DNA from: Candidatus Multivoradales bacterium
GTDB taxonomy: Bacteria > Acidobacteriota > Thermoanaerobaculia > Multivoradales > Multivoraceae
NCBI GenBank assembly: GCA_965223325.1
Contig: CBDCWI010000002.1
Span: forward strand, 3,936,001-4,000,000
Direction: 5' to 3'
Length of the DNA: 64,000 nt
Shown here: positions 1 to 22,756 of the stretch, piece by piece
Layout: every line of letters starts with the position of its first letter
How positions within the stretch are numbered: the stretch's first letter is position 1
Notes under the pieces: model-generated
Databases searched by the model: none
Told to the model about the DNA's origin: nothing
Seen by the model: the letters and a program-made list of their open reading frames with translations, nothing else
Made by a program: the position numbers and the translations under genes

Positions 1-1311
1 GTCGGCCTTCCAGTAGGTGATCGGGTCACTCTCGAGCCGCAAGCGAAAAACCCCGCCGACCACGACCGCGACGAGGAGCAGGGTGACCAGGACCGCTCGC
101 CAGGGTCGCTCGGCTCGTTCCACGCCGTACTGGGCGATCTGCGAGAGCAGTTGGATCCGGCGCGGGGGTGGAGGCTCGAAGCCGAAAACCTGAGCCAGTG
201 CGGGCAGCAGGAGGAGGCTGGCAGCCAGAGCTCCGAGAATCCCGACGGCGAGGCCGGCGCCGAGGTGCTTGAGCACCTCGATAGGCATCAAGGTCAGGGA
301 CAGGAACCCAGCGCTGGTCGACAGAGCCGAGATCGTGCAAGGTCTTGCCAACCGCGCGACCAGACGTGCACCGGGTGACAGGTCGAAAAACGGATCCTCT
401 GCTCCTGCGCTTCGGAGGAGGGCGAAAGCGTAGAGACCGTAGGCGCCGGCGGTGGCGACCAGGATGGTCGGCAGAGTCGCAGACACAGCGGTAAACGGTG
501 CGCCAACCAGAGACAGCCAGGCCGTTGCCAGAACATTGGACCAGGCTGCCAACACGCCCACAAAAAGCACGACGCCCCAGTGCCTGAGGATCGTGACCGC
601 GAGGATGAGGACCAACACCAGGGCAGCCGATGTCAGGACTCCGAGGTCGCGCAGGCCGATGCGGGTACTGTCGACCTCGGCCGCCGGGTAGCCACCAACC
701 CAGGTCGCCCAGGGCGCGCGCTCGAGAATGCGCGCGGTATCCGTGACCACTTCCTGGTTGATCGCACCGCTCGCCCGATCACCCTCCAGGGTGGGAACGA
801 TGAACATCGAGACGGCGCGGCGATCGTCCGCAATGAGGTTGCCGTCGACGAGACGATGGCCGTCGATTCGCGCCAGCAGTCGCTCGAAGGAGGCCGCGAG
901 TTCTTCCGGGGTGGCCGTGCCGGCAAGGAGCTCCTCTCCCACCAGACCCGAGGTGTCGAGAAAGCCCTGCTCGTCGGCGCGCACGTCCTCGACGGAAGTC
1001 AGATCGATGACATCAGAAACGCTGGGTAGAGATTCGATCTCGCGACGGAGGGAGGCCAGGAGCGCCAGGTCGCTGGCGGTCAAAGGTCGCCCGAGGTCGA
1101 TGCCGACCATCAGCATCTCGTCGTTCTTGAACTCGGCCTTGATCTCCTGGTTGCGGGCGCGGTCGGGATCGTTCTGGAGCAGAAAGTAGTCCAGTCCGGG
1201 ATGGATCTGGATCTTCGTTGCCGGCACGAGACCGATTACGAACGCCAGCCCGAAGAGCAAGATGATCAGGCGAGGGTACGTCTGAACCAACTTCTGCAGA
1301 ACACTGATCAT
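1..1311 (-). CDS. MMPL/RND-family lipid exporter (5' part only; runs off the left edge; absent from the ORF track)
   Basis: Partial manual translation from ATG at 1311: MISVLQKLVQTYPRLIILLFGLAFVIGLVPATKIQIHPGLDYFLLQNDPDRARNQEIKAEFKNDE..., later TM segments ...LPTILVATAGAYGLY...PCTISALSTSAGFLSLTLMPIEVLKHLGAGLAVG...LLLLPAL, still in frame at base 1 (RLESDPITYWKAD). This is the typical MMPL first-half layout. Confidence 0.85.
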   Translation of the reverse strand, partial: MISVLQKLVQTYPRLIILLFGLAFVIGLVPATKIQIHPGLDYFLLQNDPDRARNQEIKAEFKNDEMLMVGIDLGRPLTASDLALLASLRREIESLPSVSDVIDLTSVEDVRADEQGFLDTSGLVGEELLAGTATPEELAASFERLLARIDGHRLVDGNLIADDRRAVSMFIVPTLEGDRASGAINQEVVTDTARILERAPWATWVGGYPAAEVDSTRIGLRDLGVLTSAALVLVLILAVTILRHWGVVLFVGVLAAWSNVLATAWLSLVGAPFTAVSATLPTILVATAGAYGLYAFALLRSAGAEDPFFDLSPGARLVARLARPCTISALSTSAGFLSLTLMPIEVLKHLGAGLAVGILGALAASLLLLPALAQVFGFEPPPPRRIQLLSQIAQYGVERAERPWRAVLVTLLLVAVVVGGVFRLRLESDPITYWKAD

Positions 1312-1336
1312 GGGTGCGGTTACTCGGATGGATGGG

Positions 1337-4102
1337 TCAAGAAGCGGTGTCGTGCCGGAGGTTGTTTTGCAGCGCGGCCTCAACCGCCGCTTGGTCCATC
1401 TCGTGGTCGAGCGGAATCGTGATGCGAAAAGTCGCACCGCCCAGGCGGCCGTTGGCGATGGCCTCGATCGTACCGCCGTGGGCGCGGACGAGGTTGCGTA
1501 CGGTAGCGAGGCCGAGGCCGGTGCTTCGTTTCCCTGAGTGGAAGGGCTCGAAGATGCTCGGTAGCCGCGCGACGGGAATGCCGGGGCCGTTGTCTTGAAT
1601 CTCGACGAGCAGAGTGCGCCCCTCGTCAGCTCCGGCCTGGTCGATCTGCGCCTCGAGTCTGACGGTGCGGGGTTCGTCCTCACCGGCCAGGGCGTCGCGG
1701 GCGTTGTGGATCAGGTTCTCGATGACTCGCGCCAGCGCCACCGTGTCGAGGCTTCCCCTGGCGCTCGCATCGATGGCGATCTCGAGCTCGAGGTCAATGG
1801 AGCGACGCTCCAACTCACCGCGCAGACCCTCTGCGACGTCTCGTAGAAGCTCGGCTACGGTGGTCTGTTCACGCGCCAGCTGGGGCGTGCCTCCGCGGGC
1901 GAAGTTGAGCATCTCTTCGGTCATCCGACCGAGTCGATCGACGGCGGTGCCGATTTGTTTGAGTGGCTCTGCGACCGCGTTGCCGTCTCCGTTCTCGGCC
2001 GAGCGCTCGGCGAAGTGGCCGGCCAACTCAGCGTAGCCCTTGACCACGGTGAGCGCGTTGCGCAGGTCGTGGGCGATGGCGCTCGACATCTGGCCAATCG
2101 CCGCAAGGCGCGTGTCGCGTTCAGAGAGCTGCTCCTCAGCGGCCTTGCGGCGCAACAACGCACCAACGCGAGCGACGAGTTCGCGGGGAACGAAAGGCTT
2201 CACGAGGTAGTCGTCGGCGCCGTACTCCAAGCCCTCGACAATGGCACCGGCGCCGGCGCGCGCGGTCACCATGATGATCGGGATGGAGGCCAGGGCGGAA
2301 TCGGCGCGGATCTCCTTGCACAGCTGTTCGCCGTCCATGCGCGGCATCATGACGTCCGAAACCACCAGGTCGATTCGCGCGCTTTGCAGTGCCTCGAGGG
2401 CCTCGACGCCGTCGGCTGCTCGCACGACGCGATACTTCTCGAGCAGCGCTCGTGCCATGAAGTGCCGAAGGTCCTGGTTGTCGTCGACCACCAGCACGAT
2501 CGGCGCGTCCTCGGGTGGTTGGTAGTCGGGTTGGTCCTCACCGGGCGGGCGCAGGGTGGTCGGCGCAACATCCGCGAGAGCAGTGTCGCGCAGTGCGCGG
2601 CGATACTCCTGGGCGGCGAGCGCCGAGCGTCGGGCCTCAGCCATGCGATCCTGGCGACGGCGAGGCTGGCTGCGCCGATCTTCGACATGCTGCTGACGGG
2701 CCGGCAGGGTGGCGCGAAACGTCGAGCCCACTCCCACTTCGGAGTGCACCACGAGGTCGCCGCCATGCAGGCGTGCCAGTTCGCGCGCGAGCGCCAGACC
2801 AACGCCCGTTCCTTCGTGGGTGCGCGCGCTCGAACTGTCGACCTGATAGAAGCGATCGAAGACCTTTTCGAGTTCGCTCTCTGGGATTCCTGAGCCGGTG
2901 TCTTCGACCTCGAAAACGACCTTCTCGGGTTCTTCATTGCGCACGCGGACGGTGATGTGGCCCTTCTTTGTGAACTTGAGGGCGTTCGAAACCAGGTTCG
3001 CCGCAATGACCCAGATCTTGTCGACGTCGAGTTCGGCAGGTCGGAGCTTCTCTTGCTCGAAGCGCAGCTCGAGCCCCCGGGACTCCGCCAGGGGCCGCGC
3101 CGACTGAACCACCTCTCCAATCAGCTCGCCGACATCGACTCTCTCTGTGGCCAGGTCAAGCGATCCAGATTCGAGCTTCGCGATGTCGAGCAGGGCATTG
3201 ACCTGTCGTAGCAGGCGGGTGGCGTTGGTGCGCATCGAGGCCAACAGCTCGCTGTGCCCTGGGTCGCTGATCTGGCCGCGCAGGGTGTCGATAGGGCCGA
3301 GAAGAAGCGTAAGCGGTGTTCGCAGCTCGTGACTGACGTTGGCGAAGAAGCGTGTCTTGGCTTCGTCGAGCGCGAGCAGGTCCTGGTTGGCCTTCTCGAG
3401 TTGCAGGCGCAAGGAGAGGTCGCGCCACAAGGTCCTCCTGGCAGCGAATGTTCCGAGGGCGGTGAATGCCGCTGCGCAGACGAGAAAGAAGAAGTGCGCC
3501 ACCATCTCGCGCGAGGTCCCGGCGCTGGGAATGGTGAGCGCCAGGTGGAGAACCGCGGTGGCGGTTCCGAAGGCGAGCATCAAGAGCGGGTGAATGGGCA
3601 TGGAGAGCCCCAGCCCACCGATGACCAGCATGATGCCGACGAAGTAGGTGCTCTGCCAGCCGGCCATCAGTGCGCCGAGGAGTGAGATCACCGCTGCGCA
3701 GAGTAGGCCGTTGCCAATGACCAGCTTCTCGGCCCAGCGCGCGGCACCAGGGCGTCGCACGATCAACCAGGCCACCAGGCACGAAGCGGCGACCCCCAGT
3801 CTCAGGCCCAGGGCGAGATAGGCGAGACGGGGTTCGATGACCACATCCAGAAACCAGAACGCGGCGAAGAGAAAGGCCGTCGCGCCCAGCAGGCGTCGAC
3901 CCCGGTCGCGCAGCAACGCTTCGAGCTCGCGATCGAACTCGCGTGCCAGGGAAGGCTGGCTATCGCCCACGGGATGGGTTCCCGTCCAAGAAGTATCCAA
4001 AACCGGCGGTCGCCCCGTCTCGGTATGTGTTGGGCAATGGCAAGAGAAGAGCGAGTTGTTGAAAATACTAGAGTTGTGCCGTTCTCCCAAGCCCGACGAC
4101 AT
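1337..4102 (-). CDS. Membrane hybrid sensor histidine kinase: ~6 TM-HisKA-HATPase-REC-HisKA-HATPase (true start may be near 4000 or 3970)
   Basis: H-box 1 FFANVSHELRTPL; N/G boxes NLVSNALKFT, DTGSGIP, GTGVGLAL; REC VVDDN...SDVMMPRMDG...KPF; H-box 2 IAHDLRNAL, DNGPGIP, TGLGLA. Confidence 0.95.
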   Translation of the reverse strand: MSSGLGERHNSSIFNNSLFSCHCPTHTETGRPPVLDTSWTGTHPVGDSQPSLAREFDRELEALLRDRGRRLLGATAFLFAAFWFLDVVIEPRLAYLALGLRLGVAASCLVAWLIVRRPGAARWAEKLVIGNGLLCAAVISLLGALMAGWQSTYFVGIMLVIGGLGLSMPIHPLLMLAFGTATAVLHLALTIPSAGTSREMVAHFFFLVCAAAFTALGTFAARRTLWRDLSLRLQLEKANQDLLALDEAKTRFFANVSHELRTPLTLLLGPIDTLRGQISDPGHSELLASMRTNATRLLRQVNALLDIAKLESGSLDLATERVDVGELIGEVVQSARPLAESRGLELRFEQEKLRPAELDVDKIWVIAANLVSNALKFTKKGHITVRVRNEEPEKVVFEVEDTGSGIPESELEKVFDRFYQVDSSSARTHEGTGVGLALARELARLHGGDLVVHSEVGVGSTFRATLPARQQHVEDRRSQPRRRQDRMAEARRSALAAQEYRRALRDTALADVAPTTLRPPGEDQPDYQPPEDAPIVLVVDDNQDLRHFMARALLEKYRVVRAADGVEALEALQSARIDLVVSDVMMPRMDGEQLCKEIRADSALASIPIIMVTARAGAGAIVEGLEYGADDYLVKPFVPRELVARVGALLRRKAAEEQLSERDTRLAAIGQMSSAIAHDLRNALTVVKGYAELAGHFAERSAENGDGNAVAEPLKQIGTAVDRLGRMTEEMLNFARGGTPQLAREQTTVAELLRDVAEGLRGELERRSIDLELEIAIDASARGSLDTVALARVIENLIHNARDALAGEDEPRTVRLEAQIDQAGADEGRTLLVEIQDNGPGIPVARLPSIFEPFHSGKRSTGLGLATVRNLVRAHGGTIEAIANGRLGGATFRITIPLDHEMDQAAVEAALQNNLRHDTAS

Positions 4103-4128
4103 GATTTCTTGCGAAACAGCGAGGGAGC

Positions 4129-7100
4129 CTACGAAGGGGCGTCCCAGCTGCCTCCCCAGCTGCCGAGCTTGACCGCGCGCCCGATCACGGCTGTAGCGGG
4201 GCTTCCCAGTCCCTCGAACAGGTTGACCCGTGCAAAACCTGCTTCATGCAGGAGGTCACGAAGCTCCTCGCGCCCAAAGAAGCGGAATCGGCCGTCTTCT
4301 TCGAGCTCGATGAGCCTGCTCATCATGTTGGCAAAGCCCCGCAGCGCTTCGAGTTGGTGGGCTGCCTCAGGGTCGCCCTTCTCGACTCGCGCGCGCAGCA
4401 GCTCACTTTCCTCGCGGTACTGCTTTGACGGATCCCAGTTGGGCTGTAGGGATGACACCACCAAAACGCCGCCCGGCCGCAGGATGCGATGCATCTCGCG
4501 GATGGCAACCAGGGGGTCGGCGAGGTAGGAAACCACGAGCGAGCAGCCGATCCGGTCGAGGCTTTCGTCCGGGAAGTCGAGTGTCGCGCCAGGGCGAGCA
4601 TCGGCGAAGCTGAGATGCTCGAACTCGAGGTCGAGCGCGGTGGTCGCCTTCTCGCGACCGGGCCGAAGGTCCGTTGGGAGCACTTTACCGTGGCAGAACC
4701 TGGCCGCTCGGCCGATCTCCTCGATGACGTCCAGCTCGGTGCGCTCGAGATCGGGGCAGATCGTGCTGAGGCGCGCGCGGGTGAGGGGAGCGCCGCGCAG
4801 TGCTTTGTGCAGCGCCTTGCCGTAACACTCCTGAATCCGTGCTGCGGTCAGTGCTTCGAGCCCCCCGATGCGACCGGCGAGCTCTTCGACACCGTACGCT
4901 CTTCCCTCGAGGAAATCCTCGATCGGTCGCAGGCGACTGACCTCGAGGTCGGCGTTTACCTGGAGGCAGGGAAACTCACCGAGCTTGCGGGCGATCCTGG
5001 TCTCTTCGACCTTCGTTGCGGTGCGCTCGAGCGCTTCGGGCACCAGGTCCAGAATCGTGTACGAAGCCGGAGCCTGATCCTCAGTGAGAGTGCTCAAGAT
5101 GGCTCGCGACAGGTTGCCCGTTCCGCACCCGAAATCGGCGAGGTCTTCATCAGGTTGTGGATCCAGGAGTCCGACCTGGTGTTCCAGGAACTGTGGATAG
5201 TCGGGGTGCTCGAGCAACACGTCGTAGGCCAGGTCGTCGCCCCCGGAGCCGAACAGGTGCTGGTGCCAGAAGGTTCGGGCATCTCCGAGTCTGTACCGCT
5301 TGACGCGCGCCCATTCGGCGCGTGATTGCTCGCCGAACTTGCGCAGGTCCGGGTCGGTCGCCGGTCGATCTTCGCCGAAGATGTGTTTTGCCACCGACTC
5401 ACTGACCAGCTTGAAGACCTCGATCGCCTCGGGCCCCTCTTTCAAAACATGACCGGTGGCGCACTCGAAGACCTCGCGGATGCCGCTTCCCGGTGCCTCG
5501 AGCATCTGCTGGACGCGGCTGCGGGTGACCCAGTGGTCGTAGGTGCCGACGATCCAGGTGATCGGCGTGGTGATGGCTGCGATGTCCCGGCGCGCCTCGG
5601 CCAGGTAGGCCAGGTCGAGTTCCGCGGCCTTCGCGAACCAGTTGTCGACCAACACCGGGCGCCCATGGACGTGCATGCGTTCGGGTGCCTCCCCCTTTTC
5701 CCACAGCGGAAAGAGGTCGAGGCCCGCGAAGTAGTTGCGCATCATGTCCTGGGCATCGGGACAGCCGAAGGGTGCAACCCAGGCGTCGATTCGTGGCCCA
5801 GCGTCGTCCACCACCCGGCGCGCTGCGATCGCCGAGAAGGATACCGAGACCAGGGCACACTTCTGGGGGTTGAATCGCTGTTCGACGTAGCGCAGCGAAG
5901 CGTTGATGTCGTCGACCAGGTTTGACAGGTCCCACTCCAGGTAGGGCTGGTTCTGTTCAACCAACTTCGGGTTCATGGTGCTTTCACCGACGAGGTGACA
6001 GAGATCGAAACGAAGGACAACGACACGCCGACCTCCGCGTCCGAGGTCGTCGACCAGCGTTCGGGCCTGCAAGCCGAAGACCTCCTTGCGTTTCAACAGC
6101 GCGGGCGCAACGAGAACGGCGACATCGGGTCTGAGACTGGGGTCACTTGTATCGAAGTTGGCATCGATGAGACCGACGACGGACTCGCCGCGCCGATTGC
6201 GGTACTGCACGACTTCGACGCCGCTTTCGATCCGCGACCGTTGGCGCCCGAGAACTTGCGACACGCGGCTGCGCAGGAGGGCAAAGGTGCGCCGTAGGCG
6301 ATTACCCCGGGTGGACTCGAGCGAACGGCTGCTGCGGTCTTCGAAGACCGAAGGTTGACCGGGTTCATCGTCGAAGTGCAGTCCAACGCGCAGTGTCTGG
6401 TCGTCGTAGCGCGTCAAGTAGCGGATGGTCGCTCCGGAGACCGGTCGCTCGTAGCCGTTCTGGCTGACCATGAAGTGCGGCAGCCGCGTCCCGACCAGGA
6501 ACGGCGTGTTCAGAGGAACGCACATCGAGGCGCCGCCTTCGGCAAGGTCGAGGAGCTCGAAGCGCGTGAAGCCGCCGGTGAGGTGGGGAGCGCGGAACTC
6601 ACAGTAGCCCGCCGCCTCGCTCCGACGGTTGGTCCGGCGTTCGGTGACGTAGAGCCGTTGCGGTGCGAGCAACACGGGGCGTTGCCCAGGTACGAGCAGA
6701 ACGCCCTCGAAGGCGTAGAACAGGCTACCGTCTGAGAACACGATGTAGACGACACGGCTGGTCGTGTCCTCGACCAGCTCGACGCCGTCGAGGGTGAGGG
6801 TCGAGCGCGTCGGGTCGTCGTTGAGTGTCAAGCCAGCGAGTGTCGCCTCGTCGATCTGGAACCCGCGTTGAGCCAGGACGCTGATCGGGTAGCGGCCGGC
6901 AATGGCGGTCCGGAGGATCGCTTCGACTCCCTCTGGATCGGCAACCGGCAACAGGTTGCTGGGTAACAGGTCGCCTAGTCGTTGCTGCACGCGCACGATG
7001 GCGTCGTCCATCTCGAGAAAGCCGGCGTGACTTCGCAGGCGTGCACGGTCGCGCGCCGCGAGCTCTTCGAAGCGCACGCCGAAACCAGCCGGGCTGGTCC

Positions 7101-7389
7101 GCACCACACGTGCCGCGACCTCGATAGGTCGCGAGTCGGTGGGCAGGGTCAACCGCAAGGCGAGCCTTTCGCCCGGCTCGAGTTTCGTCGTTGTACGAAC
7201 GAAGGCTCCATCGGCACTCAGGTCGGAGGCGATTGCTGGTCCAGCCAGCTGCTCGCCCGAGTCGATGCGCACTGCGATATAGGTCGCCCGCCGAGGTGCA
7301 AGGCGGGCTTCCGACTCGCTGCTGCGAGCAGTCGGTGAAGGCATGGCGGTTTGTGGCCCGGGCTGCGAAGGCAGCCAGCTGGTCGTCAC
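4129..7389 (-). CDS. Multidomain protein: PilZ + YcgR-like/PilZ + LuxD-like alpha/beta-hydrolase (acyl-ACP thioesterase-like) + class I SAM methyltransferase
   Basis: PilZ motifs RLAPR/DLSADG and ERRTNRR/DLAEGG; LuxD-like RFDLCHLVGES, LVSVSFSAIAA, TYDHWV, TGHVL; methyltransferase DFGCGTG and REMHRILRPGG. GGAG lies upstream of the GTG start. Confidence 0.85.
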   Translation of the reverse strand: MTTSWLPSQPGPQTAMPSPTARSSESEARLAPRRATYIAVRIDSGEQLAGPAIASDLSADGAFVRTTTKLEPGERLALRLTLPTDSRPIEVAARVVRTSPAGFGVRFEELAARDRARLRSHAGFLEMDDAIVRVQQRLGDLLPSNLLPVADPEGVEAILRTAIAGRYPISVLAQRGFQIDEATLAGLTLNDDPTRSTLTLDGVELVEDTTSRVVYIVFSDGSLFYAFEGVLLVPGQRPVLLAPQRLYVTERRTNRRSEAAGYCEFRAPHLTGGFTRFELLDLAEGGASMCVPLNTPFLVGTRLPHFMVSQNGYERPVSGATIRYLTRYDDQTLRVGLHFDDEPGQPSVFEDRSSRSLESTRGNRLRRTFALLRSRVSQVLGRQRSRIESGVEVVQYRNRRGESVVGLIDANFDTSDPSLRPDVAVLVAPALLKRKEVFGLQARTLVDDLGRGGRRVVVLRFDLCHLVGESTMNPKLVEQNQPYLEWDLSNLVDDINASLRYVEQRFNPQKCALVSVSFSAIAARRVVDDAGPRIDAWVAPFGCPDAQDMMRNYFAGLDLFPLWEKGEAPERMHVHGRPVLVDNWFAKAAELDLAYLAEARRDIAAITTPITWIVGTYDHWVTRSRVQQMLEAPGSGIREVFECATGHVLKEGPEAIEVFKLVSESVAKHIFGEDRPATDPDLRKFGEQSRAEWARVKRYRLGDARTFWHQHLFGSGGDDLAYDVLLEHPDYPQFLEHQVGLLDPQPDEDLADFGCGTGNLSRAILSTLTEDQAPASYTILDLVPEALERTATKVEETRIARKLGEFPCLQVNADLEVSRLRPIEDFLEGRAYGVEELAGRIGGLEALTAARIQECYGKALHKALRGAPLTRARLSTICPDLERTELDVIEEIGRAARFCHGKVLPTDLRPGREKATTALDLEFEHLSFADARPGATLDFPDESLDRIGCSLVVSYLADPLVAIREMHRILRPGGVLVVSSLQPNWDPSKQYREESELLRARVEKGDPEAAHQLEALRGFANMMSRLIELEEDGRFRFFGREELRDLLHEAGFARVNLFEGLGSPATAVIGRAVKLGSWGGSWDAPS

Positions 7390-7714
7390 GGCGGTGCTCC
7401 GGAGAAGTACCTCGTTTGCGAACTAGAACTTGCGACCAGGGGTGTGTACCTGGCGGGCCTGAGAAGGAGTGAACGTTGAGGAAAACGCGAATTATATGGG
7501 AGGCAGTCGCTCGTTGCTCTATGTCACGTTGTCTGTCGCTCTATGCTGAGCTGCGACTTCTCGTCCAGGCCTGGAATCGACCTTCGGGCGAGGAATCGAA
7601 GATGCGGGTTGTGCTATATTGGACCCTAGTTTTCCGAGTTTCTAGTACTCCTGAGAGTGCGCTGAACGAGCTGGAAAGCAACACCAAACCGCCGTGTTCG
7701 TAGCGGAGACCTGA

Positions 7715-8032
7715 ATGACGACCGAACCGCAAGAAGTGCTCGAGTCCAACATGCCCGAGAGTCTCGAAGTCGAGATCTACGGCGGGACGTACCGAGTACG
7801 TGGCGGTGACGCCGAGGAGCTCCGGGAGCTGGCGGGCTACGTAGACAAGAAAATGAAGGAGGTCGCGACACATCTCGCGACAGTCGATACGACGAAGATT
7901 GCGATCCTCGCCGCGCTGAATATTGCCGATGAACTGCGCAGCGGGAGTCGAGAGAGCCAGCCCGGGGTCGAGCGTCAGCTCGACCTGATGGCCGGTGCTT
8001 TAGAAGAGGCGCTCGGAGAATCGGTGGGCTAG
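7715..8032 (+). CDS. zapA: Cell division protein ZapA
   Basis: VEIYGGTYRV...LAGYVDKKM...KIAILAALNIADEL signature; lies upstream of 6S RNA and rny. Confidence 0.93.
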   Translation: MTTEPQEVLESNMPESLEVEIYGGTYRVRGGDAEELRELAGYVDKKMKEVATHLATVDTTKIAILAALNIADELRSGSRESQPGVERQLDLMAGALEEALGESVG

Positions 8033-8109
8033 AGGGAACCGGGAGAATCGAGATCCCCTCAGGCTCCGAATGATGAGTGCGAGCGCCCAATACGAAGATC
8101 GAAGAATGT

Positions 8110-8299
8110 TGCACCCCCTGCGCGGTACGTGATGGCCCAACCACTGTTAGAACCTACGCTTCTTTTCCGGGAGTCCTATATCCACGTGGCCTGTGCCAGC
8201 CTCGCTCGTACGAGGACGCTGATGGCTCGAGGCGCGGACACCCACCTGGTCATGCCAGGTTCTAAGCCGGACGGGTCACACGGTCGGGCGGGGGGTGCC
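8110..8299 (+). ncRNA. ssrS: 6S RNA
   Basis: About 190 nt between zapA and rny (conserved synteny). Terminal stem GCACCCCCTGC/GCGGGGGGTGC, inner stem TTAGAACCT/AGGTTCTAA, and GGGAG...CACCCACC flanking a central bubble. Confidence 0.85.
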
Positions 8300-8421
8300 A
8301 CCCTTCGTTTCGCTGGCAGCGGTCGCCAACTTGCCGCGACCGCCGGGGGTGTGAACCCCTAAGGGAAGTCGGTTCTCTCGCCGAAGGTGTCGTGCCTCTT
8401 GCCATATAGGCGGAGGTACCA

Positions 8422-9987
8422 ATGGACACGAATGTTGTACTAGCTGCGCTGGCGCTAGTGGCCGCTGCGTCCATGCCTGTGGTTTGGCTCCTGTTCGTGC
8501 GACGTGCTGCACGGCAGATCACCATCCAGGCGCGCCGCAAGGCGACGCGGCTTCTCGAAGAGGCCGACCGCGAGCGCGACGCCAAGCGTCGCGAGGACGA
8601 GCTCGCGGCACGGGAAAGAACGCTGCAGCGCCGCGCTGAGTTCGAAGCGGAGGCTTCGAAACACCGCGCCGAACTCGATGAGCGGGCTCGCGAACTGGCC
8701 GACGAGCGCCGCGAGTACACGGAGCAGGCGGCGCAACTCGAGCGTCGACTCCTCGAACAGGAAGAAAGAGAACAGGCACTCGCTGCGACAGAGGCGAATG
8801 TCGAGGCCAGAGGGCAGCGTTACGCGAGGCTGTTGGAGGACGAACGCCACCGGCTCGAGCGCGTCGCCGGGCTGACCGCTCAGCAAGCGCGCGAAGAGCT
8901 CGTTCGCAGCCTCGAGGCCGAGGCACGCATCGAAGCCGCTCACCTGATCAAGAAGATCGAAGACGAAGCGCGTGAGCGCGCTCTTCCCGAAGCGCAACGG
9001 ATCATCTCGATGGCGATCGAGCGCTCGGCAGCGGACTACATCAATGAAACCACGGTTTCGGTGGTGATGTTGCCCAGCGACGACATGAAGGGTCGCATCA
9101 TCGGCCGTGAGGGACGCAACATCCGCGCGCTCGAAATGGCGACGGGCGTCGACTTGATCGTCGACGATACCCCCGAGGCCGTGATTGTTTCGGGCTTCGA
9201 TCCCTACCGGCGGGAGATCGCTCGCGTCAGCCTCGAGCGCTTGATCGCCGATGGGCGCATTCACCCTGCCCGGATCGAAGAGGTGACCGAGAAGACGCGC
9301 GCCGAATTCGAGCAACGAATTCAGAGTGACGGCCAGGAGGCGCTGCTCGAGCTCAACCTTTCGAATGTGCACGCTGAGTTGGTGAAGCTGCTGGGGCGGT
9401 TGCGCTATCGCACCAGCTACGGTCAGAACGTCTTGCAACACAGCAAGGAGGTCGCCTTTCTGGCGGCCAACATGGCGGGCGAGCTGCGTGCTGACGTGCA
9501 CGTTGCCAAACGTGCGGGCCTCTTCCATGACATTGGCAAGGCGGTTGATCGCGAGATGGAAGGCACCCACCTCGAGGTGGGGATCGACCTCTTGCGCAAG
9601 TACGGCGAAACGGAAGAAGTTGTGCACGCCATGGCGTGTCACCACGGTGACTACGATCCTGAGACCGTGGAGGCTGTCCTGGTGACTTCTGCCGATGCGC
9701 TGTCGGCCGCGCGCCCAGGCGCGCGGCGCGAGATTCTCGAGACCTATATGCGACGACTCGAGAAGCTCGAGGAGCTCGCCTCGAGTTTCGACGGTGTCAA
9801 CAAGAGCTACGCGATTCAGGCCGGTCGCGAGGTCCGCATCATCGTCGACTGCGACAAGCTGAGCGACGAGGAGGCCATTTGGCTGTCGAAGGATGTCGCC
9901 AAGAAGATCGAGAAGGAACTGACCTATCCCGGGCATATCAAGGTCACCGTGATTCGGGAGTCGCGAGCGGTTGACTATGCCCGCTGA
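8422..9987 (+). CDS. rny: Ribonuclease Y
   Basis: N-terminal TM and coiled coil; KH domain [14 protein letters not shown]; HD domain [12 protein letters not shown]...GLFHDIGK; [12 protein letters not shown]; strong GGAGG RBS. Confidence 0.98.
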
Positions 9988-15497: not shown

Positions 15498-18400
15498 ATG
15501 GCCGGGGCCGCCGCCCCGACGGGGCGCCACCGCCGGTGGCGACGGATGCTTCGGACGTTCGTGTGGTCGGCGACGCTGCTGCTCATTTTCGTAGCGATCA
15601 CCGTCCTCTACCTGCGGTCGATCAGCTTCGAAAACCGCCTCACCGACCGGCTGATTCGCGAGGCCGAGGTTCGCCTCGAGCGCGACGTCGAGATCGACCG
15701 CGCGCGGGTCGAGTTCTTTCCACCCGGAGTGACCTTCGAGAATCTGCGGGTTGCCGGTCCTGATCGCGACGCGCAGCCGCTCTTTTCCGCCCGTCGGTTG
15801 GAGGTTGGAGTCGTTGGACTCGTTGACGCAGGCACTCTCTACCGGAGGTCGGTGGGAATCGGTCGCATCGTCGCCGAAGAACCGCGGATTCGCCTGGTCA
15901 TCGATGAGAACGGCGAGCTGCTTCTGCCACGGATCTTGCGTGGCGGTGGGGGAGAGGGTGCGATCCGGCAGGAGATACCCGTTGCCGGTGTTCTGATCAC
16001 CGACGGCTTGATCGAGCTCGACGGCAACTCGATACCTCTGAACATCCAGACCGGAGGCTTGCGGGTTCTGCTCGAACGCACTCCGCGCGGGCATCTGGTT
16101 GGCGAGGCGGCCGCGGAGCGCGTGCGGCTCATCGTTCCGAACGGACGCTCGGAAGGTGGCGAACTCCAGGGCACGGTACCGATCATTGGCAGTCTTCGCA
16201 CCCGTCTCGATCTCTCGACCGAGGCGGTCGCGATTGAGCGATTACGCTTGACTCGCCCTGATTTCGACCTGCGTGCTGACGGCCTCGTCTCCTGGGGATC
16301 GGAGGCGGCGCGAGTCGAGATGACCCTCTTGGCCGATGGAGACTTCGCGCAGTGGACCGAGTGGACTTTCCTCGAGCCGCTGGCGTCTGGTGCACCACTG
16401 CTCTCGGGGCCGTATGCCTGGAACGGAACGCTCGCCTGGGTCGGAGCGGAGAGTTCCGAGAGCGGCGCTCAGACCGCGGAGCCGAGTACCTGGAGCGTGG
16501 CGGGAAAACTGACAACGCCGCGCATGGCCGTCGAAAGGCTGGCCGTCCGTGCTGTCCTGGCCGACGTGGAGGTCGATCCTCAGCGCGTTGGCGTACGCCT
16601 CGTCGAGGCCTCCCTCCTGGGTGGCCGGGTCGTCGGTCAGGCCGAGATCGATCTGCGTGAGGTCTCCGAGACCGCCCGCACCGGTCGTGTCGACCTCCAG
16701 GCTTCGTCGGTCGATGCACGGCAGGTTATCCAGACGATCGTGTCCGACGTCGACCTGGCGGTCGGCGGCAGTCTCGAGGGACCTCTCCAGTACCGCTTCA
16801 GTCTCGACGATCCGTTGGCTGGCAATGGTCGTGCCGATCTGGTGGTAGACGCCGGAGTCGAACAAGGGAGCGGCCTTCGCCCGATGCGCGGCGAGTTGCC
16901 GCTCTTGATCGAGGCCGGAGTTCTCTCGAGTGAGGCACTGAAGGTCAACTTGCCTGGTCAGCGTGTAACCAGCCGCTTGCACGTCGATCTGCGCAACCTC
17001 GAGACGAGGTTGCAGGCGAACGTTCAAAGCTACGACCTTGCGGCGCTTGTTGCGCTGGCTCTCCCGCTTGCCAATGACGCTTCGGGTGAGGATCTGGCGG
17101 CCGCCGCGCCAGATGATCCACTGATCGGCTTTCGGCCCGTTGCGGGCCGCGGTGGGTTTGACGTCGATCTCCAGGTCTCCGAAAGAGCGACCCGAGTTGA
17201 CGTAGCGTTCGAACTCGACCAGCCGATGGCAGACCGCCTGGTTCTGGACCAGGCCAGCGGCACGGTGGCCCTCGCCAGTGCCGCCGACGGCAGGTTGGAA
17301 ATGCAGGGGCTCGAGGCAAGACTCGAACGCGGCGCCGGCGCGGCGCTCTTCATTGCCCGGCCAAGGCCTGCCGAAGCCCTCTCGCCAAGCCTTGACGAGG
17401 TATCGAGAGTCCATGACTTCGGCCTCGATCTCGAGGCCTGGCCGCTGCAGTCGCTGGTGCGCGCCATCACCGGGCGGCCGGCGGCGGGCAGCCTTGCGCA
17501 GCTCGACGGACAGGTTGGTGGTCACCTCAGGTGGCTGTTGCCGGCAAGCGGTCTCGCCGATTCTGCGGGCGAGATGAACGCCCGCGTCGAAGAGCTCAGC
17601 TATGGCGATCGCATTCAACTCGGAGCGGCCGAAGTGGTGGGAACCTTCGGTCAAAGCGACAGAGTTCCAGAGGGAACCCTCGGACTCAACATCCAGAGGG
17701 CGGTGCTCGACAGCGCGGCCGGTGCCGTCGAAGTTGCGGGGAGCATGGCCCTTTCGATCGGCGATGGCGGAGATCCGTCGGTCGGGCAAACCCCGGGGCA
17801 GGTCGATCTCTCCCTGGTGGGGAAGAACCTCGATCTCCAGGCTTCCCCGTTCGCGGAACTCCTTGGGCTCGATAGTGAACCACGCTGGCTGTCGATCACG
17901 GGCGTCGTTGACGGTTCGTTGACCGCGCCTGATGCCAACCTCGAGTTGTCGGTCACTCCAGACCTCGACTCAGTTGCCCTGGCCTCCGAGGAGTCGGCCT
18001 TGCGCGTGGACTGGCAGGGTAGCGACGGAGCCCTCCATGTCGAGGGGGCGCTACTCGACCTGGTGCGTCTCGAGGGTGGGGGGATCGCCAATCGGAACGG
18101 AGTGCACCTACGTGCGGAGGTTGGGGGTGCCACGCTAGGAGCGGTGGTGCGTGCCGCCCTTCTGCGCGCCGACTGGAACTCCGAAGACGACCTGGGAGTG
18201 CCAGGAGAGGATCCGCTCGACCGCATCGCGAGGGGTGAGCTCGAGGGTGAGTACCGCGCGACGCTCGAGCTGCGCGGCGGTCCGAGCGCGCCGACGGAAG
18301 CCTCTCTGCGCTTCGATGCACTGCGCGCTCGTCTTCCCGCGCCTGTCGACAGCAGCTCGGAAGAGGGCGCCCTGCAGCTGTCGGCCGAAGAGCCGTTTAC

Positions 18401-19877
18401 GGTTCGTTGGCGTGCGGCCGAAGCCGATGCTGGGGATCGACTTTCACTCGAGGGCTTGTGGCTGCGCGATGAGGCGAGTGGTGCCGAGGTCATTGTCGTC
18501 GGGTCAGCCGAGAGTAGTGCCTCGCCCGGCTCCTCTGGCGCCGGCCTGCCCGCAGTGTGGGCGCTCGACTTCGGCGTGCAGGGCACGATACCGGCCCGGT
18601 GGATTGAAGGGTTCGCTCCAGCGGTCGATCTTGACGGTCGCATCGAACTGCTGGCCGTTCTCGAAGGCACTTCGGTGGTGCCTGAGTTCGACGGTCAGAT
18701 GCGCATGGCCGATGGCGAAGCGCGTATCGATGGCTTTCCACATGCATTCGAGGACCTCGACTGGACGGCGCTGCTCTATCCCGATCGGGTGGTTCTCGAC
18801 CGCCTCAGTGGGCGTCTCGGTGACGGCCCCCTGCGCGCTTCGGGCGACGTCCAGTTCGTTCGCGACCCGCCGACACCGCCGGCGGTTGCCATGCCGCGGG
18901 TCCGCCTGGACGCACGCGTCGAGAACGCTTCACTGCGCTGGCCGGAAGGGTGGAGCATGCGCGGCGGCGCGGAGATCGCCTTCCGGCAGAGTGAAGCCGG
19001 AGATCGGGTCGTCGTCGGTGAAGCAAAGCTCGATCGCGCGCGCTCACTTTCGCAGCTTGACTTGAGCCTTCCGCAGCTTCTGCGTGGCATGTTCGAGCGT
19101 CGGCGACTCCAGGTACAGGATACCGACCCACTGCTCGACACTGTGCGTCTCAACGTCGAGATCGAGGGCAGTGAGGCACTGCGCATCGAGAACGACGTAG
19201 CGAGGCTCTCGGGATCGATCGATCTCATCGCTCAGGGCACGCTCGGACGCCCGGTTGTTTTCGGTGAGGTTGGACTCGACGCCGGCGGCACAGTCAGCTG
19301 GGGCGGCGAGGACTATGAACTGACCCGTGGCGTTCTCACGTTCTCGAACCCCTATGAAATCGACCCCTTGATCGACATCGTGGCGGTCACCAAGCGGCGC
19401 GACTACGACGTCGTGTTGGCGCTGTCGGGTGACCGCGAGCGACTCGAGGCTAATCTCACTTCCGACCCGCCGCTGCCAGAGCTCGAGGTCCTCAGTCTGT
19501 TGGCGGCTGGTGGCACCACCCCGGGCAGCGATACCGGTCTCGGACCGCAAAGGGCGGGCTCTCGGAGCGTCGACGCGGCCGATCTTCTCTACTCTCAGGC
19601 CTCGACGTTGGTTGGCGATCGCTTCACCCGCCTCTTTGGGCTCGACCGCTTCCGCCTCGACCCCCTGACGACCGGTGACACCTTGTCGAGCGCTCGCGTG
19701 ACGCTTGGGAAACGGCTTTCTTCAGATGTGTTTGTGACCTACTCGGCGGATCCTTCGTCGAGTGAGAACTCGATTCTCGAGGTCGAGTGGGAGGTCGACG
19801 ACAACGTGGTCCTCGTTCTGCGGCAGAACGCCGATGGAACCTATTCGGCTGATCTACGGGTGGAGCACGTCTTCTGA
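15498..19877 (+). CDS. TamB/AsmA-like translocation and assembly module protein (DUF490 C-terminus)
   Basis: 1459 aa; N-terminal anchor; long beta-rich body; C-terminus ...DPLIDIVA...LTSDPPLPELEVLSLL...TLGKRLSSDVFVTYS; coupled to an Omp85 gene. Confidence 0.88.
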   Translation: MAGAAAPTGRHRRWRRMLRTFVWSATLLLIFVAITVLYLRSISFENRLTDRLIREAEVRLERDVEIDRARVEFFPPGVTFENLRVAGPDRDAQPLFSARRLEVGVVGLVDAGTLYRRSVGIGRIVAEEPRIRLVIDENGELLLPRILRGGGGEGAIRQEIPVAGVLITDGLIELDGNSIPLNIQTGGLRVLLERTPRGHLVGEAAAERVRLIVPNGRSEGGELQGTVPIIGSLRTRLDLSTEAVAIERLRLTRPDFDLRADGLVSWGSEAARVEMTLLADGDFAQWTEWTFLEPLASGAPLLSGPYAWNGTLAWVGAESSESGAQTAEPSTWSVAGKLTTPRMAVERLAVRAVLADVEVDPQRVGVRLVEASLLGGRVVGQAEIDLREVSETARTGRVDLQASSVDARQVIQTIVSDVDLAVGGSLEGPLQYRFSLDDPLAGNGRADLVVDAGVEQGSGLRPMRGELPLLIEAGVLSSEALKVNLPGQRVTSRLHVDLRNLETRLQANVQSYDLAALVALALPLANDASGEDLAAAAPDDPLIGFRPVAGRGGFDVDLQVSERATRVDVAFELDQPMADRLVLDQASGTVALASAADGRLEMQGLEARLERGAGAALFIARPRPAEALSPSLDEVSRVHDFGLDLEAWPLQSLVRAITGRPAAGSLAQLDGQVGGHLRWLLPASGLADSAGEMNARVEELSYGDRIQLGAAEVVGTFGQSDRVPEGTLGLNIQRAVLDSAAGAVEVAGSMALSIGDGGDPSVGQTPGQVDLSLVGKNLDLQASPFAELLGLDSEPRWLSITGVVDGSLTAPDANLELSVTPDLDSVALASEESALRVDWQGSDGALHVEGALLDLVRLEGGGIANRNGVHLRAEVGGATLGAVVRAALLRADWNSEDDLGVPGEDPLDRIARGELEGEYRATLELRGGPSAPTEASLRFDALRARLPAPVDSSSEEGALQLSAEEPFTVRWRAAEADAGDRLSLEGLWLRDEASGAEVIVVGSAESSASPGSSGAGLPAVWALDFGVQGTIPARWIEGFAPAVDLDGRIELLAVLEGTSVVPEFDGQMRMADGEARIDGFPHAFEDLDWTALLYPDRVVLDRLSGRLGDGPLRASGDVQFVRDPPTPPAVAMPRVRLDARVENASLRWPEGWSMRGGAEIAFRQSEAGDRVVVGEAKLDRARSLSQLDLSLPQLLRGMFERRRLQVQDTDPLLDTVRLNVEIEGSEALRIENDVARLSGSIDLIAQGTLGRPVVFGEVGLDAGGTVSWGGEDYELTRGVLTFSNPYEIDPLIDIVAVTKRRDYDVVLALSGDRERLEANLTSDPPLPELEVLSLLAAGGTTPGSDTGLGPQRAGSRSVDAADLLYSQASTLVGDRFTRLFGLDRFRLDPLTTGDTLSSARVTLGKRLSSDVFVTYSADPSSSENSILEVEWEVDDNVVLVLRQNADGTYSADLRVEHVF

Positions 19878-22756
19878 TGTTGCTCACCTGTCGGGGTTTC
19901 GTGGTCGCTGCCCTTCTTGCCCTCCTGGTGGTTCCGGTTGCCGCACAGGACGAGGACGGTTTGGTGACCGCGATCGAAGTGCGCACGGATTCACGCTCGG
20001 CGGACCGGCGGGCGCTTTCCGACGCGATCGAAATCAACCTCGGCCAAGCGCTCGACCGAACCCTCGCGGCACGGACGATCGAGAACCTCTACGGGCTTGG
20101 CCTGGGCTCCGACATTCGCCTTTCACTGGTCCCTGCCCCAGAGGGCGACGGGCTGGTTGCCGTGTTCGAGATTCACTCCGACGTACGGCTCGAGTCCGTC
20201 GAGATCGCCGGTGTTCGGAGTCTTTCGCGTGGCGAGCTGTTCTCGGTCATCGAGGCACGCGCCGGCGAGCGCTTGCTGGAAGACAGGCTCTTGCGCTCAG
20301 TTTTTTCGCTGCGCGATCTATACGACGATGCGGGCTACCGCGACGCCCGAGTACGTCTTGCGGTGGATATAGACGAGACCTCGCGACTCGCAGCGGTGAC
20401 CTTTCATCTCGATTCAAGAGAGCGTGCCCAGGTCGCCGAGGTCATCTTCGACGGCGCCGTGACCGGCCTGCCCTACAGCACGCTCTTAGAACCGCTCGAG
20501 CTGGTTCCAGGGAGCGACTTCAGTCGCCGAGCGCTGCGCGAGGACGCCGATCGCCTCCGACGTCACCTGCAGGGGCTAGGCTACCGGCGGGTGCGCGTCG
20601 AAGCTTCGCGGGTCGTCGAGGGCGACGGTGGGTCCGCCCGGGGCGTCGAGATCCACCATCGGGTTTTCCTGGGGCCGCTGGTCGAGGTGGTCTTCGATCT
20701 ACCGGACGCCGATGACCGCAAACGTCTGGAGCAGAAAGGCATGTTGCCGTTTCTCGGCGAAGCCGGGCTCGATCAGGGCCTGCTCCAGGAGTCTGTCCAG
20801 CGCGTGCGAGCCGAGTATCAGCGGCGTGGCTACTACGATGTTTCAGTGACCGCCGAAACCGCGGTGCAGGAGGCTCTCCCCCATACCCCTCCGAGCGAGC
20901 GGGTGGGCGAGGTGGAGCAGGTGACCTTCACGGTCAGAGCGGGAGAACGCTACCGACTGGTTGGACTCGAGCTCGAAGGCAATACGAGCTATGCGGACTC
21001 CGTCCTGTTACCACTCTTTGAAACCGCGCCTGGGCGCGGTTTGGGGGGAAGCGGTCGCCTGGTGAGCGATGCCTTCGACGCCGATCTCGACAACCTGCGC
21101 GCCTGGTACGCCCTGCAGGGTTTCAGTGAGGCGCAGATCGGTCCTGCTGAGATCGAGCGCCGGCCACCCCAGCGCCAAGGGGAGCGCGGCGAGCTCGCGG
21201 TCGTTGTGCCGATTCTCGAGGGGCCCAGACAGCTGGTCTCTGGCCTGAGCCTGCAAATCGGCGCCGAAGGACCGGGCGCTCTCCAGGGCCGGCAGCTGCC
21301 GACCGCCGCCGAACTCGAAGCGGAGCTGCCGCTCGAAGTGGGCGGGCCCTTTCATACGCAGCGTCTCGAGCAGGCAGAACAGCGCATCCGCGCGGTTTTC
21401 GAGGCGGCCGGTTTCGATCGCGCGCTGGTTTCTTCGGACGTTGATTGGGGCACCGATGGCCAGCTTGCAGACGTTCATCTCGAGATCGAGCCCGGCGTTC
21501 GACGAGTGGTGGGTGGCGTCATCGTAAGAGGCAATCTGCTGACCCGCGAGTCACTGATTCGGCGCTCGATGGGTCTCGAGCGTGGCCAACCGTTCCACCG
21601 GGCACGGCTGCTCGAAGCGCAGCGGGCGCTCTACCGGCTCGGGGTTTTCTCGCGCGTCACCGTCGAACCGGGACCGCGTCGACTCAAAGGCGACGCTCTA
21701 GGCCTGGCCGCGGGAGAGGTCTCCCAGGAGGTCATCGTGCGCCTTGTCGAAGCGCGACGTTGGCGCCTTTCGTATGGCGCGAGCTGGAACTCGGAGGATG
21801 GCTTCGGCGGCCTGTTCGCCGCGTCGCGCTCAAACCTCTTCGGGCGGGGAGGCGCCCTGCAACTTGATACGCGTGTGAATCAACGCGAGGAGCGCTTCCG
21901 CCTGTTGTACGTCGACCGCCGCCCTGGGCGTGGAGCGACGACTCTGAACTATGCGCTCTATCGGATCTCAGAGGAGCTGTCGGAGTTTCAGTCCGAGCGC
22001 TTCGGCCTGCAGCTCGAAGCACAGCGCATTCTCGGAGGCGTGCGAGCGAGCGCCTTCTTCGACTACCGCAACGTTGATCTCGAGCTCGGCAGTGGCATCG
22101 ACCCCGATACCTCGGTCATTGGCCTGGTCGATCGCGAGCTAGCCGAAGTGGAGATCGCCAGTGTGACCGCGACGCTCTCGATCGACCGTCGCGATGATCC
22201 GTTCGAACCGCGGCGCGGCTACTCCGGGACCGTGCAACTCGAACAGGCCTTCAGCCTCTTTTCGGCCAAGGAAGAGTTCACCAAGCTCTTCGTTCAGGGT
22301 ACCGGGGCTTTCGACCTCGCGCCCGTCGGCGTTGTAGCGGCTAGCGTTCGTGTAGGTGGCATCGAGCGCGGTGGTGACGAGGCGGTGCCGATTTCGGAGC
22401 GCTTTTTCGCCGGTGGACGCACCACACATCGTGCGTTCGCGCGCGACGAACTCGGTTTCGTGGGAGAAACGATTCGCGAGGGGATTTCGGTGGGTGGCGA
22501 AGGACTGTTGCTCGGCAATCTGGACTTTCGCTTCCCGATCGCTGGGGCGTTTGGAGGCACCATCTTCTTCGACACAGGTGGCGTGTGGTCGGAATGGACG
22601 GACGTCGATCCTTCCGAGCTCCGCCATGGTGCCGGAGTCGGGGTTCGCTACCTGTCGCCAGTTGGACCGATCCGGTTGGAGGTAGGCTGGAAGCTCGACC
22701 CGGATGTAGACGAAAGCCGCAGCGTCGTTTTCTTGAGCTTTGGTAACGCGTTCTAG
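19877..22756 (+). CDS. Omp85-family (BamA/TamA) protein with POTRA repeats
   Basis: POTRA repeats (YQRRGYY, GNLLTRESLIRR, LYRLGVFSRV), ERFFAGG, RYLSPVGPIRLEVG, C-terminal SFGNAF. Confidence 0.92.
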   Translation: MLLTCRGFVVAALLALLVVPVAAQDEDGLVTAIEVRTDSRSADRRALSDAIEINLGQALDRTLAARTIENLYGLGLGSDIRLSLVPAPEGDGLVAVFEIHSDVRLESVEIAGVRSLSRGELFSVIEARAGERLLEDRLLRSVFSLRDLYDDAGYRDARVRLAVDIDETSRLAAVTFHLDSRERAQVAEVIFDGAVTGLPYSTLLEPLELVPGSDFSRRALREDADRLRRHLQGLGYRRVRVEASRVVEGDGGSARGVEIHHRVFLGPLVEVVFDLPDADDRKRLEQKGMLPFLGEAGLDQGLLQESVQRVRAEYQRRGYYDVSVTAETAVQEALPHTPPSERVGEVEQVTFTVRAGERYRLVGLELEGNTSYADSVLLPLFETAPGRGLGGSGRLVSDAFDADLDNLRAWYALQGFSEAQIGPAEIERRPPQRQGERGELAVVVPILEGPRQLVSGLSLQIGAEGPGALQGRQLPTAAELEAELPLEVGGPFHTQRLEQAEQRIRAVFEAAGFDRALVSSDVDWGTDGQLADVHLEIEPGVRRVVGGVIVRGNLLTRESLIRRSMGLERGQPFHRARLLEAQRALYRLGVFSRVTVEPGPRRLKGDALGLAAGEVSQEVIVRLVEARRWRLSYGASWNSEDGFGGLFAASRSNLFGRGGALQLDTRVNQREERFRLLYVDRRPGRGATTLNYALYRISEELSEFQSERFGLQLEAQRILGGVRASAFFDYRNVDLELGSGIDPDTSVIGLVDRELAEVEIASVTATLSIDRRDDPFEPRRGYSGTVQLEQAFSLFSAKEEFTKLFVQGTGAFDLAPVGVVAASVRVGGIERGGDEAVPISERFFAGGRTTHRAFARDELGFVGETIREGISVGGEGLLLGNLDFRFPIAGAFGGTIFFDTGGVWSEWTDVDPSELRHGAGVGVRYLSPVGPIRLEVGWKLDPDVDESRSVVFLSFGNAF

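Follow-up and report, generated by a model that had tools for sequence, protein, structure and literature searches.

A PilZ-bearing LuxD-like hydrolase-methyltransferase fusion and its conserved membrane kinase partner: a candidate Phc-like lipid-signal module in a Thermoanaerobaculia genome

We analysed a stretch of 64,000 nucleotides (the window, G000:C2:3936001-4000000) from the genome of a Candidatus Multivoradales bacterium and took the flank to the left of its first base from the same genome. At the window's left end lie three minus-strand genes, namely a gene for a PilZ-PilZ-hydrolase-methyltransferase fusion protein (4129..7389, 1086 residues), a gene for a hybrid sensor kinase (1337..4102, 921 residues) in which a transmembrane (TM) domain is followed by a histidine kinase (HK), a receiver (REC) and a second histidine kinase (TM-HK-REC-HK), and the 5' part of a gene for an MMPL/HAE3 RND transporter (1..1311, ATG at 1311) that continues beyond the window. 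The gaps between them in the open reading frame (ORF) listing measure 26 and 25 nucleotides, bearing out the co-directional, tightly spaced arrangement described in an earlier reading of the letters alone (the original prediction). The G+C content at third codon positions (GC3) is 0.77-0.78 in both complete genes (fusion and kinase), the same as in the other retained coding ORFs, and the fusion gene may alternatively start at the ATG at 7344.

The fusion protein, delimited by its ORF and translation, Pfam, its homologues and an AlphaFold2 (AF2) model, consists of a PilZ domain, a YcgR-like PilZN-PilZ module, a LuxD-like hydrolase and a class I S-adenosylmethionine (SAM) methyltransferase. Pfam recognizes the first PilZ domain (7030..7305; residues 29-120, E 4e-19), several class I methyltransferase models at residues 745-1053 that are interrupted by an insertion and, weakly, Abhydrolase_6. 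The second PilZ module, a PilZN-like barrel with PilZ domain 2 (6373..6954; residues 146-339), was established by profile matches to YcgR and YpfA and by Foldseek matches to YcgR (5y6f), MrkH (5kgo) and PP4397 (3kyf); the matched YcgR structure is the c-di-GMP (cyclic di-guanosine monophosphate)-bound form, MrkH and PP4397 being matched likewise for the N-terminal part. The AF2 model, made from a 96-sequence alignment (mean predicted local distance difference test score, pLDDT, 83.9; predicted template modelling score, pTM, 0.76), divides into PilZ 1 (37-108), a helical linker, the PilZN-like barrel with PilZ 2 (146-339), a disordered linker (342-382), the hydrolase (386-671) and the methyltransferase (749-1073) with a helical insertion (~812-940), and the originally predicted order of PilZ, PilZ, hydrolase and methyltransferase is upheld.

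The c-di-GMP motifs of PilZ domains are RxxxR and D/NxSxxG. Reading residue conservation from alignments of 16 and of 96 homologues, we found that in PilZ 1 these motifs take the form R29xxxR33 and D56-L-S58-A-D-G61 (D56xS58xxG61), with S58 invariant and R29, R33, R34 and G61 conserved in at least 90% of the 96 homologues, and that in PilZ 2 the R251 R252 xxx R256 signature, located in the linker ahead of the PilZ barrel, is invariant in the same 96. The anticipated c-di-GMP-binding motifs are hence present and conserved in the N-terminus of the fusion, which is predicted to bind the messenger. Among 8000 candidates examined, 135 homologues of the fusion were retrieved at E <= 0.001, most of them full length (~1050-1100 residues) with 39-56% identity, and their labels are mainly those of Thermoanaerobaculia metagenome-assembled genomes, with some from Myxococcales, Planctomycetota and Thermodesulfobacteriota.

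The hydrolase domain (5377..6234; residues 386-671) had originally been likened to LuxD, and both profile and fold confirm this likeness. A profile built from 14 family members found LuxD (1tht_A) as its best match in the PDB (E 5.6e-8; runner-up 0.013), and in this profile alignment Ser517, Asp618 and His647 of the fusion fall on the columns of the LuxD residues S114, D211 and H241 (the last two numbers obtained by counting residues in the alignment). All three residues are invariant in the 96 homologues. Foldseek with the whole AF2 model against the PDB likewise ranked 1tht first (E 4e-14, TM-score 0.81, root-mean-square deviation 3.5, 311 columns), the next structural neighbours of the hydrolase being esterases. 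According to the available portion of PMC6279958, LuxD transfers the acyl group from acyl-acyl carrier protein (acyl-ACP) onto Ser114, a member of its catalytic triad. Spirochaete homologues score 35.5 and 32.7 bits on PF02273 (cutoff 20.3). Run over 1.84 billion representatives, the hydrolase-domain profile matched 291 at E <= 1e-30, 461 at E <= 1e-10 and 682 at E <= 0.001; the lengths of the 150 matches listed cluster at ~800-850, 1050-1090 and 1135-1200 residues, and since no stand-alone protein of ~300 residues is among these 150, this LuxD-like subfamily seems always to occur fused.

The methyltransferase domain (4171..5145; residues 749-1073; motif I, D752xGCGTG758) holds a conserved, mostly helical insertion of ~130 residues at about 812-940. 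Its best NCBIfam match, BioC, reaches 44 bits against a cutoff of 185, the fatty-acid O-methyltransferase Mtf2 matches with only E 0.016, and Foldseek returned generic class I enzymes only (Coq5, CmoA, LahSb and Rv2258c), matches from which no substrate can be inferred.

Related loci were drawn from genome contigs, metagenomes and a survey of the class, and their domains were mapped by tblastn and Pfam. Among the matches listed, 5 of 38 genome-contig loci and 6 of 34 metagenome loci were true relatives with a hydrolase-methyltransferase match, while the remaining ones were short methyltransferase-motif matches only and were dropped. Two loci that end within the fusion gene (L048, L050) were left out of the synteny counts, as was L079, a duplicate of L003, leaving 11 loci with at least 1.3 kb downstream (L003, L045, L046, L047, L080, L081, L004, L005, L006, L007 and L049). 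In all 11, a kinase gene lies downstream of the fusion gene on the same strand, directly after it in seven and, in four Spirochaete loci, after an inserted AMP-binding ligase. Identities to the query segments range from 26 to 61%, and the loci, Spirochaetota records included, represent at least three lineages. The predicted synteny was therefore recovered for the fusion and kinase (11/11 loci), but not for the MMPL gene (2/12 loci). We conclude that the fusion-kinase pair is a real, conserved unit and that the exporter is outside it.

The AMP-binding (acyl-activating) enzyme occupies L004:12240-15217, L006:12181-14864 and L049:12166-13560, and in L004 and L006, the two loci scanned for it, a gene for a B12-binding radical SAM protein also lies between fusion and kinase. 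The fit of both genes with small-molecule biosynthesis suggests a more elaborate product in Spirochaetes. A side finding in L081 is a gene with a CAP12/Pycsar-type TIR effector domain (L081:6192-6947, minus strand) ~1 kb past the kinase end, probably an unrelated defence gene. Within the class the distribution of the fusion is patchy: it was present in 4 of 401 sampled genomes, this one and three from a single genus that contributed 10, and in none of 37 sampled genomes of this genome's own family.

The kinase, analysed by its ORF, Pfam and hydropathy, begins with a polytopic membrane sensor domain (3428..3925; residues ~60-225; 5-6 TM segments; weakly MASE8-like), which is followed by a first kinase core of HisKA (H258) and HATPase_c (2696..3361), a receiver domain (2165..2497; residues 536-646) and a second kinase core of HisKA (H678) and HATPase_c (1403..2101), all minus-strand and assigned by Pfam except the sensor domain. 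Hydropathy (19-residue window) gave five strong peaks within residues 71-219, and a sixth, weaker TM segment near 176-195 was placed by eye; the loops are short and there is no periplasmic domain. The membrane input of about six TM segments thus came out as originally described, whereas the receiver and the second HisKA/HATPase core had been overlooked. Across 10 related loci and the window the membrane domain can be aligned, with polar residues that never vary in TM1 (Asp), in TM2 (Arg) and in a GGxxSxY motif. Its profile gave 58 matches, spread over 50 of the 401 class genomes, and their restriction to these 50 indicates that the profile does not capture a generic membrane-kinase signal. The seven strongest matches are those in the four fusion-bearing genomes and in three genomes of another family. 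When the membrane region was compared as a single sequence with shorter proteins, no match was obtained at E <= 0.001 and no named PhcS was reached. The same genome carries a second, weaker membrane-domain match outside the window (G000:C1:1521809-1522360, plus strand, E 4e-15) in an open frame of 465 residues.

The three genomes of another family provide the link to Phc signalling. They have no LuxD-like domain, and their TM-HK-REC-HK kinase gene is divergent beside a gene for a protein of ~505 residues, whose homologues are named 'extracellular factor (EF) 3-hydroxypalmitic acid methyl ester biosynthesis protein' in ~35 of 120 listed; the identification of this family as PhcB rests on these JGI/NCBI labels, which correspond to the PhcB name, and on a Paraburkholderia cluster. 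A protein atlas places the family among PilZ/methyltransferase clusters. A strong PhcB-like match (E <= 1e-50) occurs in 37 of the 401 class genomes, and in 29 of these the gene lies 1.2-4.3 kb from a membrane-domain kinase gene, suggesting that Phc-like pairs are common in this class; in the other eight, the two are on separate contigs (5) or no such kinase was found (3). A broader PhcB-like tally of 62/401 includes the unpublished genome G179, and the other counts are independent of it. TM-HK-REC-HK kinases adjoin PhcB-family genes in class genomes G015, G109, G121, G154, G266 and others and at loci L098-L101, the PhcB-family genes there encoding a PilZ-like N-terminus with a methyltransferase; next after the PhcB-like gene of L098 comes one for a fatty acid desaturase. 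In this genome itself the PhcB-like family has no match at E <= 1e-10.

The phc operon has the order phcB-phcS-phcR-phcQ and PhcR comprises a receiver and a kinase domain, as stated in the accessible text of PMC8578825, so that the window kinase holds the domain content of PhcS and PhcR in one chain. The Paraburkholderia cluster, on a Paraburkholderia graminis plasmid, consists of a methyltransferase (468 residues), a kinase (445 residues) and two response regulators in phcBSRQ order. Its methyltransferase matches the PhcB-like profile with E 1.8e-37, and the N-terminal 200 residues of its kinase match our membrane-domain profile over 191 columns (probability 98.4%, E 6.7e-15). The kinase's His ~233 (hand count in the alignment) is near His230, the residue on which PhcS is phosphorylated according to the part of PMC11960443 available. 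These results carry the comparison with PhcB and PhcS further than originally proposed, as the kinase membrane domain proved homologous to that of PhcB-partnered kinases. A tblastn search of a plasmid collection with the PhcB-like protein and the Paraburkholderia kinase returned no Ralstonia record. The 344-residue second regulator of the Paraburkholderia cluster was considered as an HD-GYP protein and rejected, for it aligns to REC-HD-GYP proteins in the receiver part only.

A partner that had escaped the earlier note is a REC-HD-GYP protein, encoded adjacent to, or fused with, the kinase or fusion genes in 8 of the 11 related loci. Its gene lies directly upstream of the fusion gene in L003, L045, L080 and L081 and 3' of the kinase gene in L047, and the protein is fused to the kinase C-terminus in L004, L006 and L049; as for the other three, L005 was outside the scan, L046 is too short and L007 has none. 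The motifs HD, HHE/HQE and GYP are invariant, together with the receiver Asp and Lys. For the RpfG family, hydrolysis of c-di-GMP depends on phosphorylation of the receiver, according to the consulted section of bioRxiv 10.1101/2021.11.05.467447.

Reading the flank left of base 1 confirmed the MMPL family of the transporter and added a LolA-like fusion and a DUF1302 neighbour. The full transporter gene (L002:10069-13311, minus strand) encodes 1080 residues of MMPL/HAE3 RND type by Pfam, with an extra TM segment (802-820) and then a C-terminal LolA_like domain (890-1079; PF17131, E 1e-43). The other Pfam matches on the exporter parts are PF03176 (E 4e-24), PF07044 (E 2e-9) and PF06980 (E 5e-18), and the match of the transporter to the HAE3 model TIGR00921 is far under its cutoff. 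The DUF1302 gene (L002:8704-10059, plus strand), outside the window, converges on the transporter gene, 9 nucleotides from its stop. AmeABCD-type hydrophobe efflux uses the same parts, that is, an HAE3 RND pump, DUF1302 and DUF1329/LolA-like proteins (PMC6394551, available in part). A gene resembling AmeC (BNR/Ycf48-like) is missing from the immediate neighbourhood, where a TPR/CarboxypepD_reg protein is encoded next.

Around this locus the setting is largely one of housekeeping genes by Pfam (PheT, RNase Y, YmdB, polyprenyl synthase, NAD kinase and TamB/Omp85). Window segments 15498-22756 and 27734-31837 encode a pair of TamB-like (1459 residues) and POTRA/Omp85 (959 residues) proteins and a 1367-residue protein with repeated CarboxypepD_reg domains, and outside the window, on its left, two genes in the same orientation as the DUF1302 gene encode a 442-residue methyltransferase-domain protein (L002:2168-3496, plus strand) and a 465-residue protein with no Pfam match (L002:3984-5381, plus strand). 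Upstream of the fusion gene, two ORFs (7626..8144 and 8262..8720) were treated as non-coding, as they have no Pfam match and fail the GC3 filter. The ~1 kb in front of the fusion gene (window 7390-8421) contains no convincing gene, has a G+C content of 0.60-0.62 versus ~0.64-0.66 and is possibly an extended leader or regulatory segment. Scanned for promoters and terminators, the operon and its ends yielded no more sites than shuffled sequence, a result that carries no information on transcription units.

On balance, we lean towards reading the locus as a Phc-like module for lipid signalling, one whose synthase is unusual. What the analysis established is which domains are present, their motifs and fold, the synteny and the associations between families; from these we infer the substrate, product, ligand, gating direction and transport direction. 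The LuxD-like domain would unload acyl-ACP, and the fused methyltransferase would methylate the acid set free, or a compound derived from it, to give a more membrane-permeant product, in the simplest case a fatty acid methyl ester, with the PilZ and YcgR-like modules putting synthase activity under c-di-GMP and so setting its rate. The polytopic membrane domain of the kinase would bind the lipid product inside the membrane and pass the signal through a relay from kinase to receiver to second kinase; because the same domain family accompanies PhcB-family methyltransferases, such a lipid product is its most likely ligand. More generally, one sensor family that goes with two unrelated PilZ-bearing methyltransferase enzymes is the pattern expected of synthase-receptor pairs. 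Outward transport of the hydrophobic product is probably the task of the Ame-like, envelope-spanning exporter (HAE3 RND pump-LolA-like plus DUF1302). The REC-HD-GYP phosphodiesterase would be the end point of the relay in most related loci, and through it perception could feed back on the PilZ domains of the synthase. We put forward only tentatively, and with real doubt, the further-reaching idea of a self-contained circuit in which c-di-GMP gates synthesis of the lipid (methyl ester) signal and the signal in turn, via the PhcS-type kinase and REC-HD-GYP, lowers c-di-GMP.

Several observations weigh against this interpretation. In PilZ 2 the second motif reads D281-L-A-E-G-G286, with the Ser of D/NxSxxG replaced. 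The window hydrolase has no match to Pfam PF02273 at E <= 1, only 4 of the 14 family members match it, and the substrate of the methyltransferase is not readable from sequence or fold, its closest matches (Coq5, CmoA, LahSb, Rv2258c and BioC) being generic. Nor is this methyltransferase PhcB-like: hhalign pairs only PilZ 2 with the PhcB-like N-terminus (probability 88%). The PhcS reference is a plasmid cluster called Phc-like by gene order, sizes and taxonomy, not the characterized Ralstonia protein, and 12 of the 50 genomes with a membrane-domain match, mostly weak and in shorter proteins, are without a fusion or a strong PhcB-like match. The related genomes are kin, so that the synteny counts overstate independence. 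In the window's locus there is no response regulator or HD-GYP gene, and a search of this genome with one query found no REC+HD-GYP orthologue and matched only two HD-GYP-only stretches; output and feedback loop are hence not evident in this genome. The MMPL gene, finally, is present in only 2 of 12 loci (the window and L007, where it is divergent), and in the three closest genomes that also carry the fusion, all of this class, MMPLs have 25-30% identity or are absent at E <= 1e-20. A conserved place in the system is thus not supported for it; the exporter is a lineage-specific addition.

The alternative that survives best, though we consider it unlikely, is that the fusion, under the control of c-di-GMP, modifies or releases lipids for structural or metabolic use and not for signalling, for example methylated envelope or matrix lipids exported by the MMPL/LolA/DUF1302 proteins, with the kinase monitoring membrane state or another cue and regulating the operon. 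The co-directional lipid exporter and the lack of an output regulator in the window's locus would suit such an enzyme, as would the weakly MASE8-like kinase membrane domain, given that, to our knowledge, the ligands of polytopic MASE-type sensor domains are generally not determined. Sets of DUF1302, DUF1329 and RND proteins have moreover been proposed to export a cell-wall component or to deal with fatty esters, and growth on such esters has been connected with them (bioRxiv 10.1101/2020.07.04.188060, in the portion available). It is, however, the kinase that is always conserved with the enzyme (11/11) and not the exporter, and kinases with this type of membrane domain also go with another PilZ-methyltransferase family, non-homologous and labelled PhcB, as synthases and receptors would. 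We regard as improbable that hydrolase and methyltransferase oppose each other as methylesterase and methyltransferase, like CheB/CheR or, with a carrier-bound substrate, BioH/BioC, and so determine how far a protein or an acyl-carrier intermediate, which might belong to the kinase pathway itself, is methylated: among NCBIfam models BioC scores best on the methyltransferase domain, albeit far under cutoff, JGI names some homologues 'pimeloyl-ACP methyl ester carboxylesterase' and esterases are the nearest structures of the hydrolase after LuxD, but profile and fold both place the hydrolase closest to LuxD, an acyl-ACP thioesterase, and not to BioH or CheB, the methyltransferase matches are generic small-molecule enzymes and no biotin or chemotaxis genes are among the scanned neighbours. 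That the three genes are unrelated neighbours with a coincidental resemblance to signalling systems is scarcely credible, for even with an MMPL gene that is not syntenic elsewhere and uninformative promoter and terminator scans, the gaps are only 25-26 nucleotides and the fusion-kinase adjacency in 11/11 related loci from distant lineages already contradicts it for that pair.

The pair of maker and sensor recurs in several phyla and appears undescribed. In searches that took in neither supplements nor subscription journals, no paper was found that combines PilZ, LuxD and methyltransferase, nor one that joins PilZ, methyltransferase, quorum sensing, c-di-GMP and PhcB; a Ralstonia paper with both PhcB and PilZ refers, in its available text, only to the pilZ gene, and the accessible part of a PilZ review preprint (10.1101/814665) lists many PilZ fusions, this one not among them. 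If the Phc-like interpretation holds, cell-to-cell lipid signals and c-di-GMP, the messenger of sessile and motile life, would be tied together in a single enzyme, and Phc-type signalling, known from one plant-pathogen lineage, would reach poorly studied environmental phyla. If the more tentative circuit of mutual control with c-di-GMP holds as well, Phc-type synthase-sensor pairs would be a widespread family instead of being peculiar to Ralstonia, their PilZ-bearing synthases coming in two or more unrelated types and occurring in Acidobacteriota, Spirochaetota and, by record labels, other phyla. As a single compact protein leading from acyl-ACP to a methylated fatty-acyl product, the fusion would also be of interest for producing fatty acid methyl esters, and the kinase membrane-domain family would gain a candidate ligand class.

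Each part of the locus has a known counterpart from which it departs. The fusion shares with the receptors YcgR, MrkH and PP4397 the fold and profile of residues ~146-339 and an RxxxR motif in the pre-barrel linker, but has an additional canonical PilZ domain in front and a two-domain enzyme as its output in place of a flagellar brake or DNA binding. Its hydrolase has the myristoyl-ACP thioesterase/acyltransferase LuxD (1THT; PF02273) as top profile and fold match, with the Ser-Asp-His triad aligned column for column, yet is only ~15% identical, lies under Pfam detection in the window copy and is fused to a methyltransferase, whereas LuxD works with LuxE and LuxC; no lux genes are among the neighbours scanned. 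As in AmeABCD, this genome has an MMPL/HAE3 pump, a LolA_like domain and a DUF1302 protein; here, however, the LolA-like part is joined to the pump via the extra TM segment and the DUF1302 gene is convergent, not co-directional.

With Phc, the locus has in common that a methyltransferase-bearing synthase gene adjoins the gene for a kinase with polytopic membrane input, that this membrane domain is homologous to those of PhcB-partnered kinases, that a receiver and a second kinase core are present as reported for PhcR and that a fatty acid methyl ester is the kind of product predicted. It differs in that the catalytic domains of the synthase are not PhcB-like and include a LuxD-type thioesterase alongside two c-di-GMP receptor modules, the PhcS-like and PhcR-like parts form a single protein, an RND exporter is attached, relatives have an HD-GYP output and the host class is Thermoanaerobaculia, in contrast to Betaproteobacteria. 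Equivalents of PhcQ or PhcA (LysR) are absent among the Pfam-scanned neighbours, no genome-wide search having been made. The Rpf system of Xanthomonas, which signals through diffusible signal factor (DSF), follows a logic of lipid signal, membrane hybrid kinase (there RpfC), REC-HD-GYP and c-di-GMP that would be shared by the 8 of 11 related loci with a REC-HD-GYP protein. An RpfF-type crotonase domain was absent from Pfam and NCBIfam scans of the three proteins, and the REC-HD-GYP protein of that system is RpfG, whereas the window's locus has no HD-GYP gene; moreover, unlike in Rpf/DSF, c-di-GMP would here act back on the synthase itself, via its PilZ domains.

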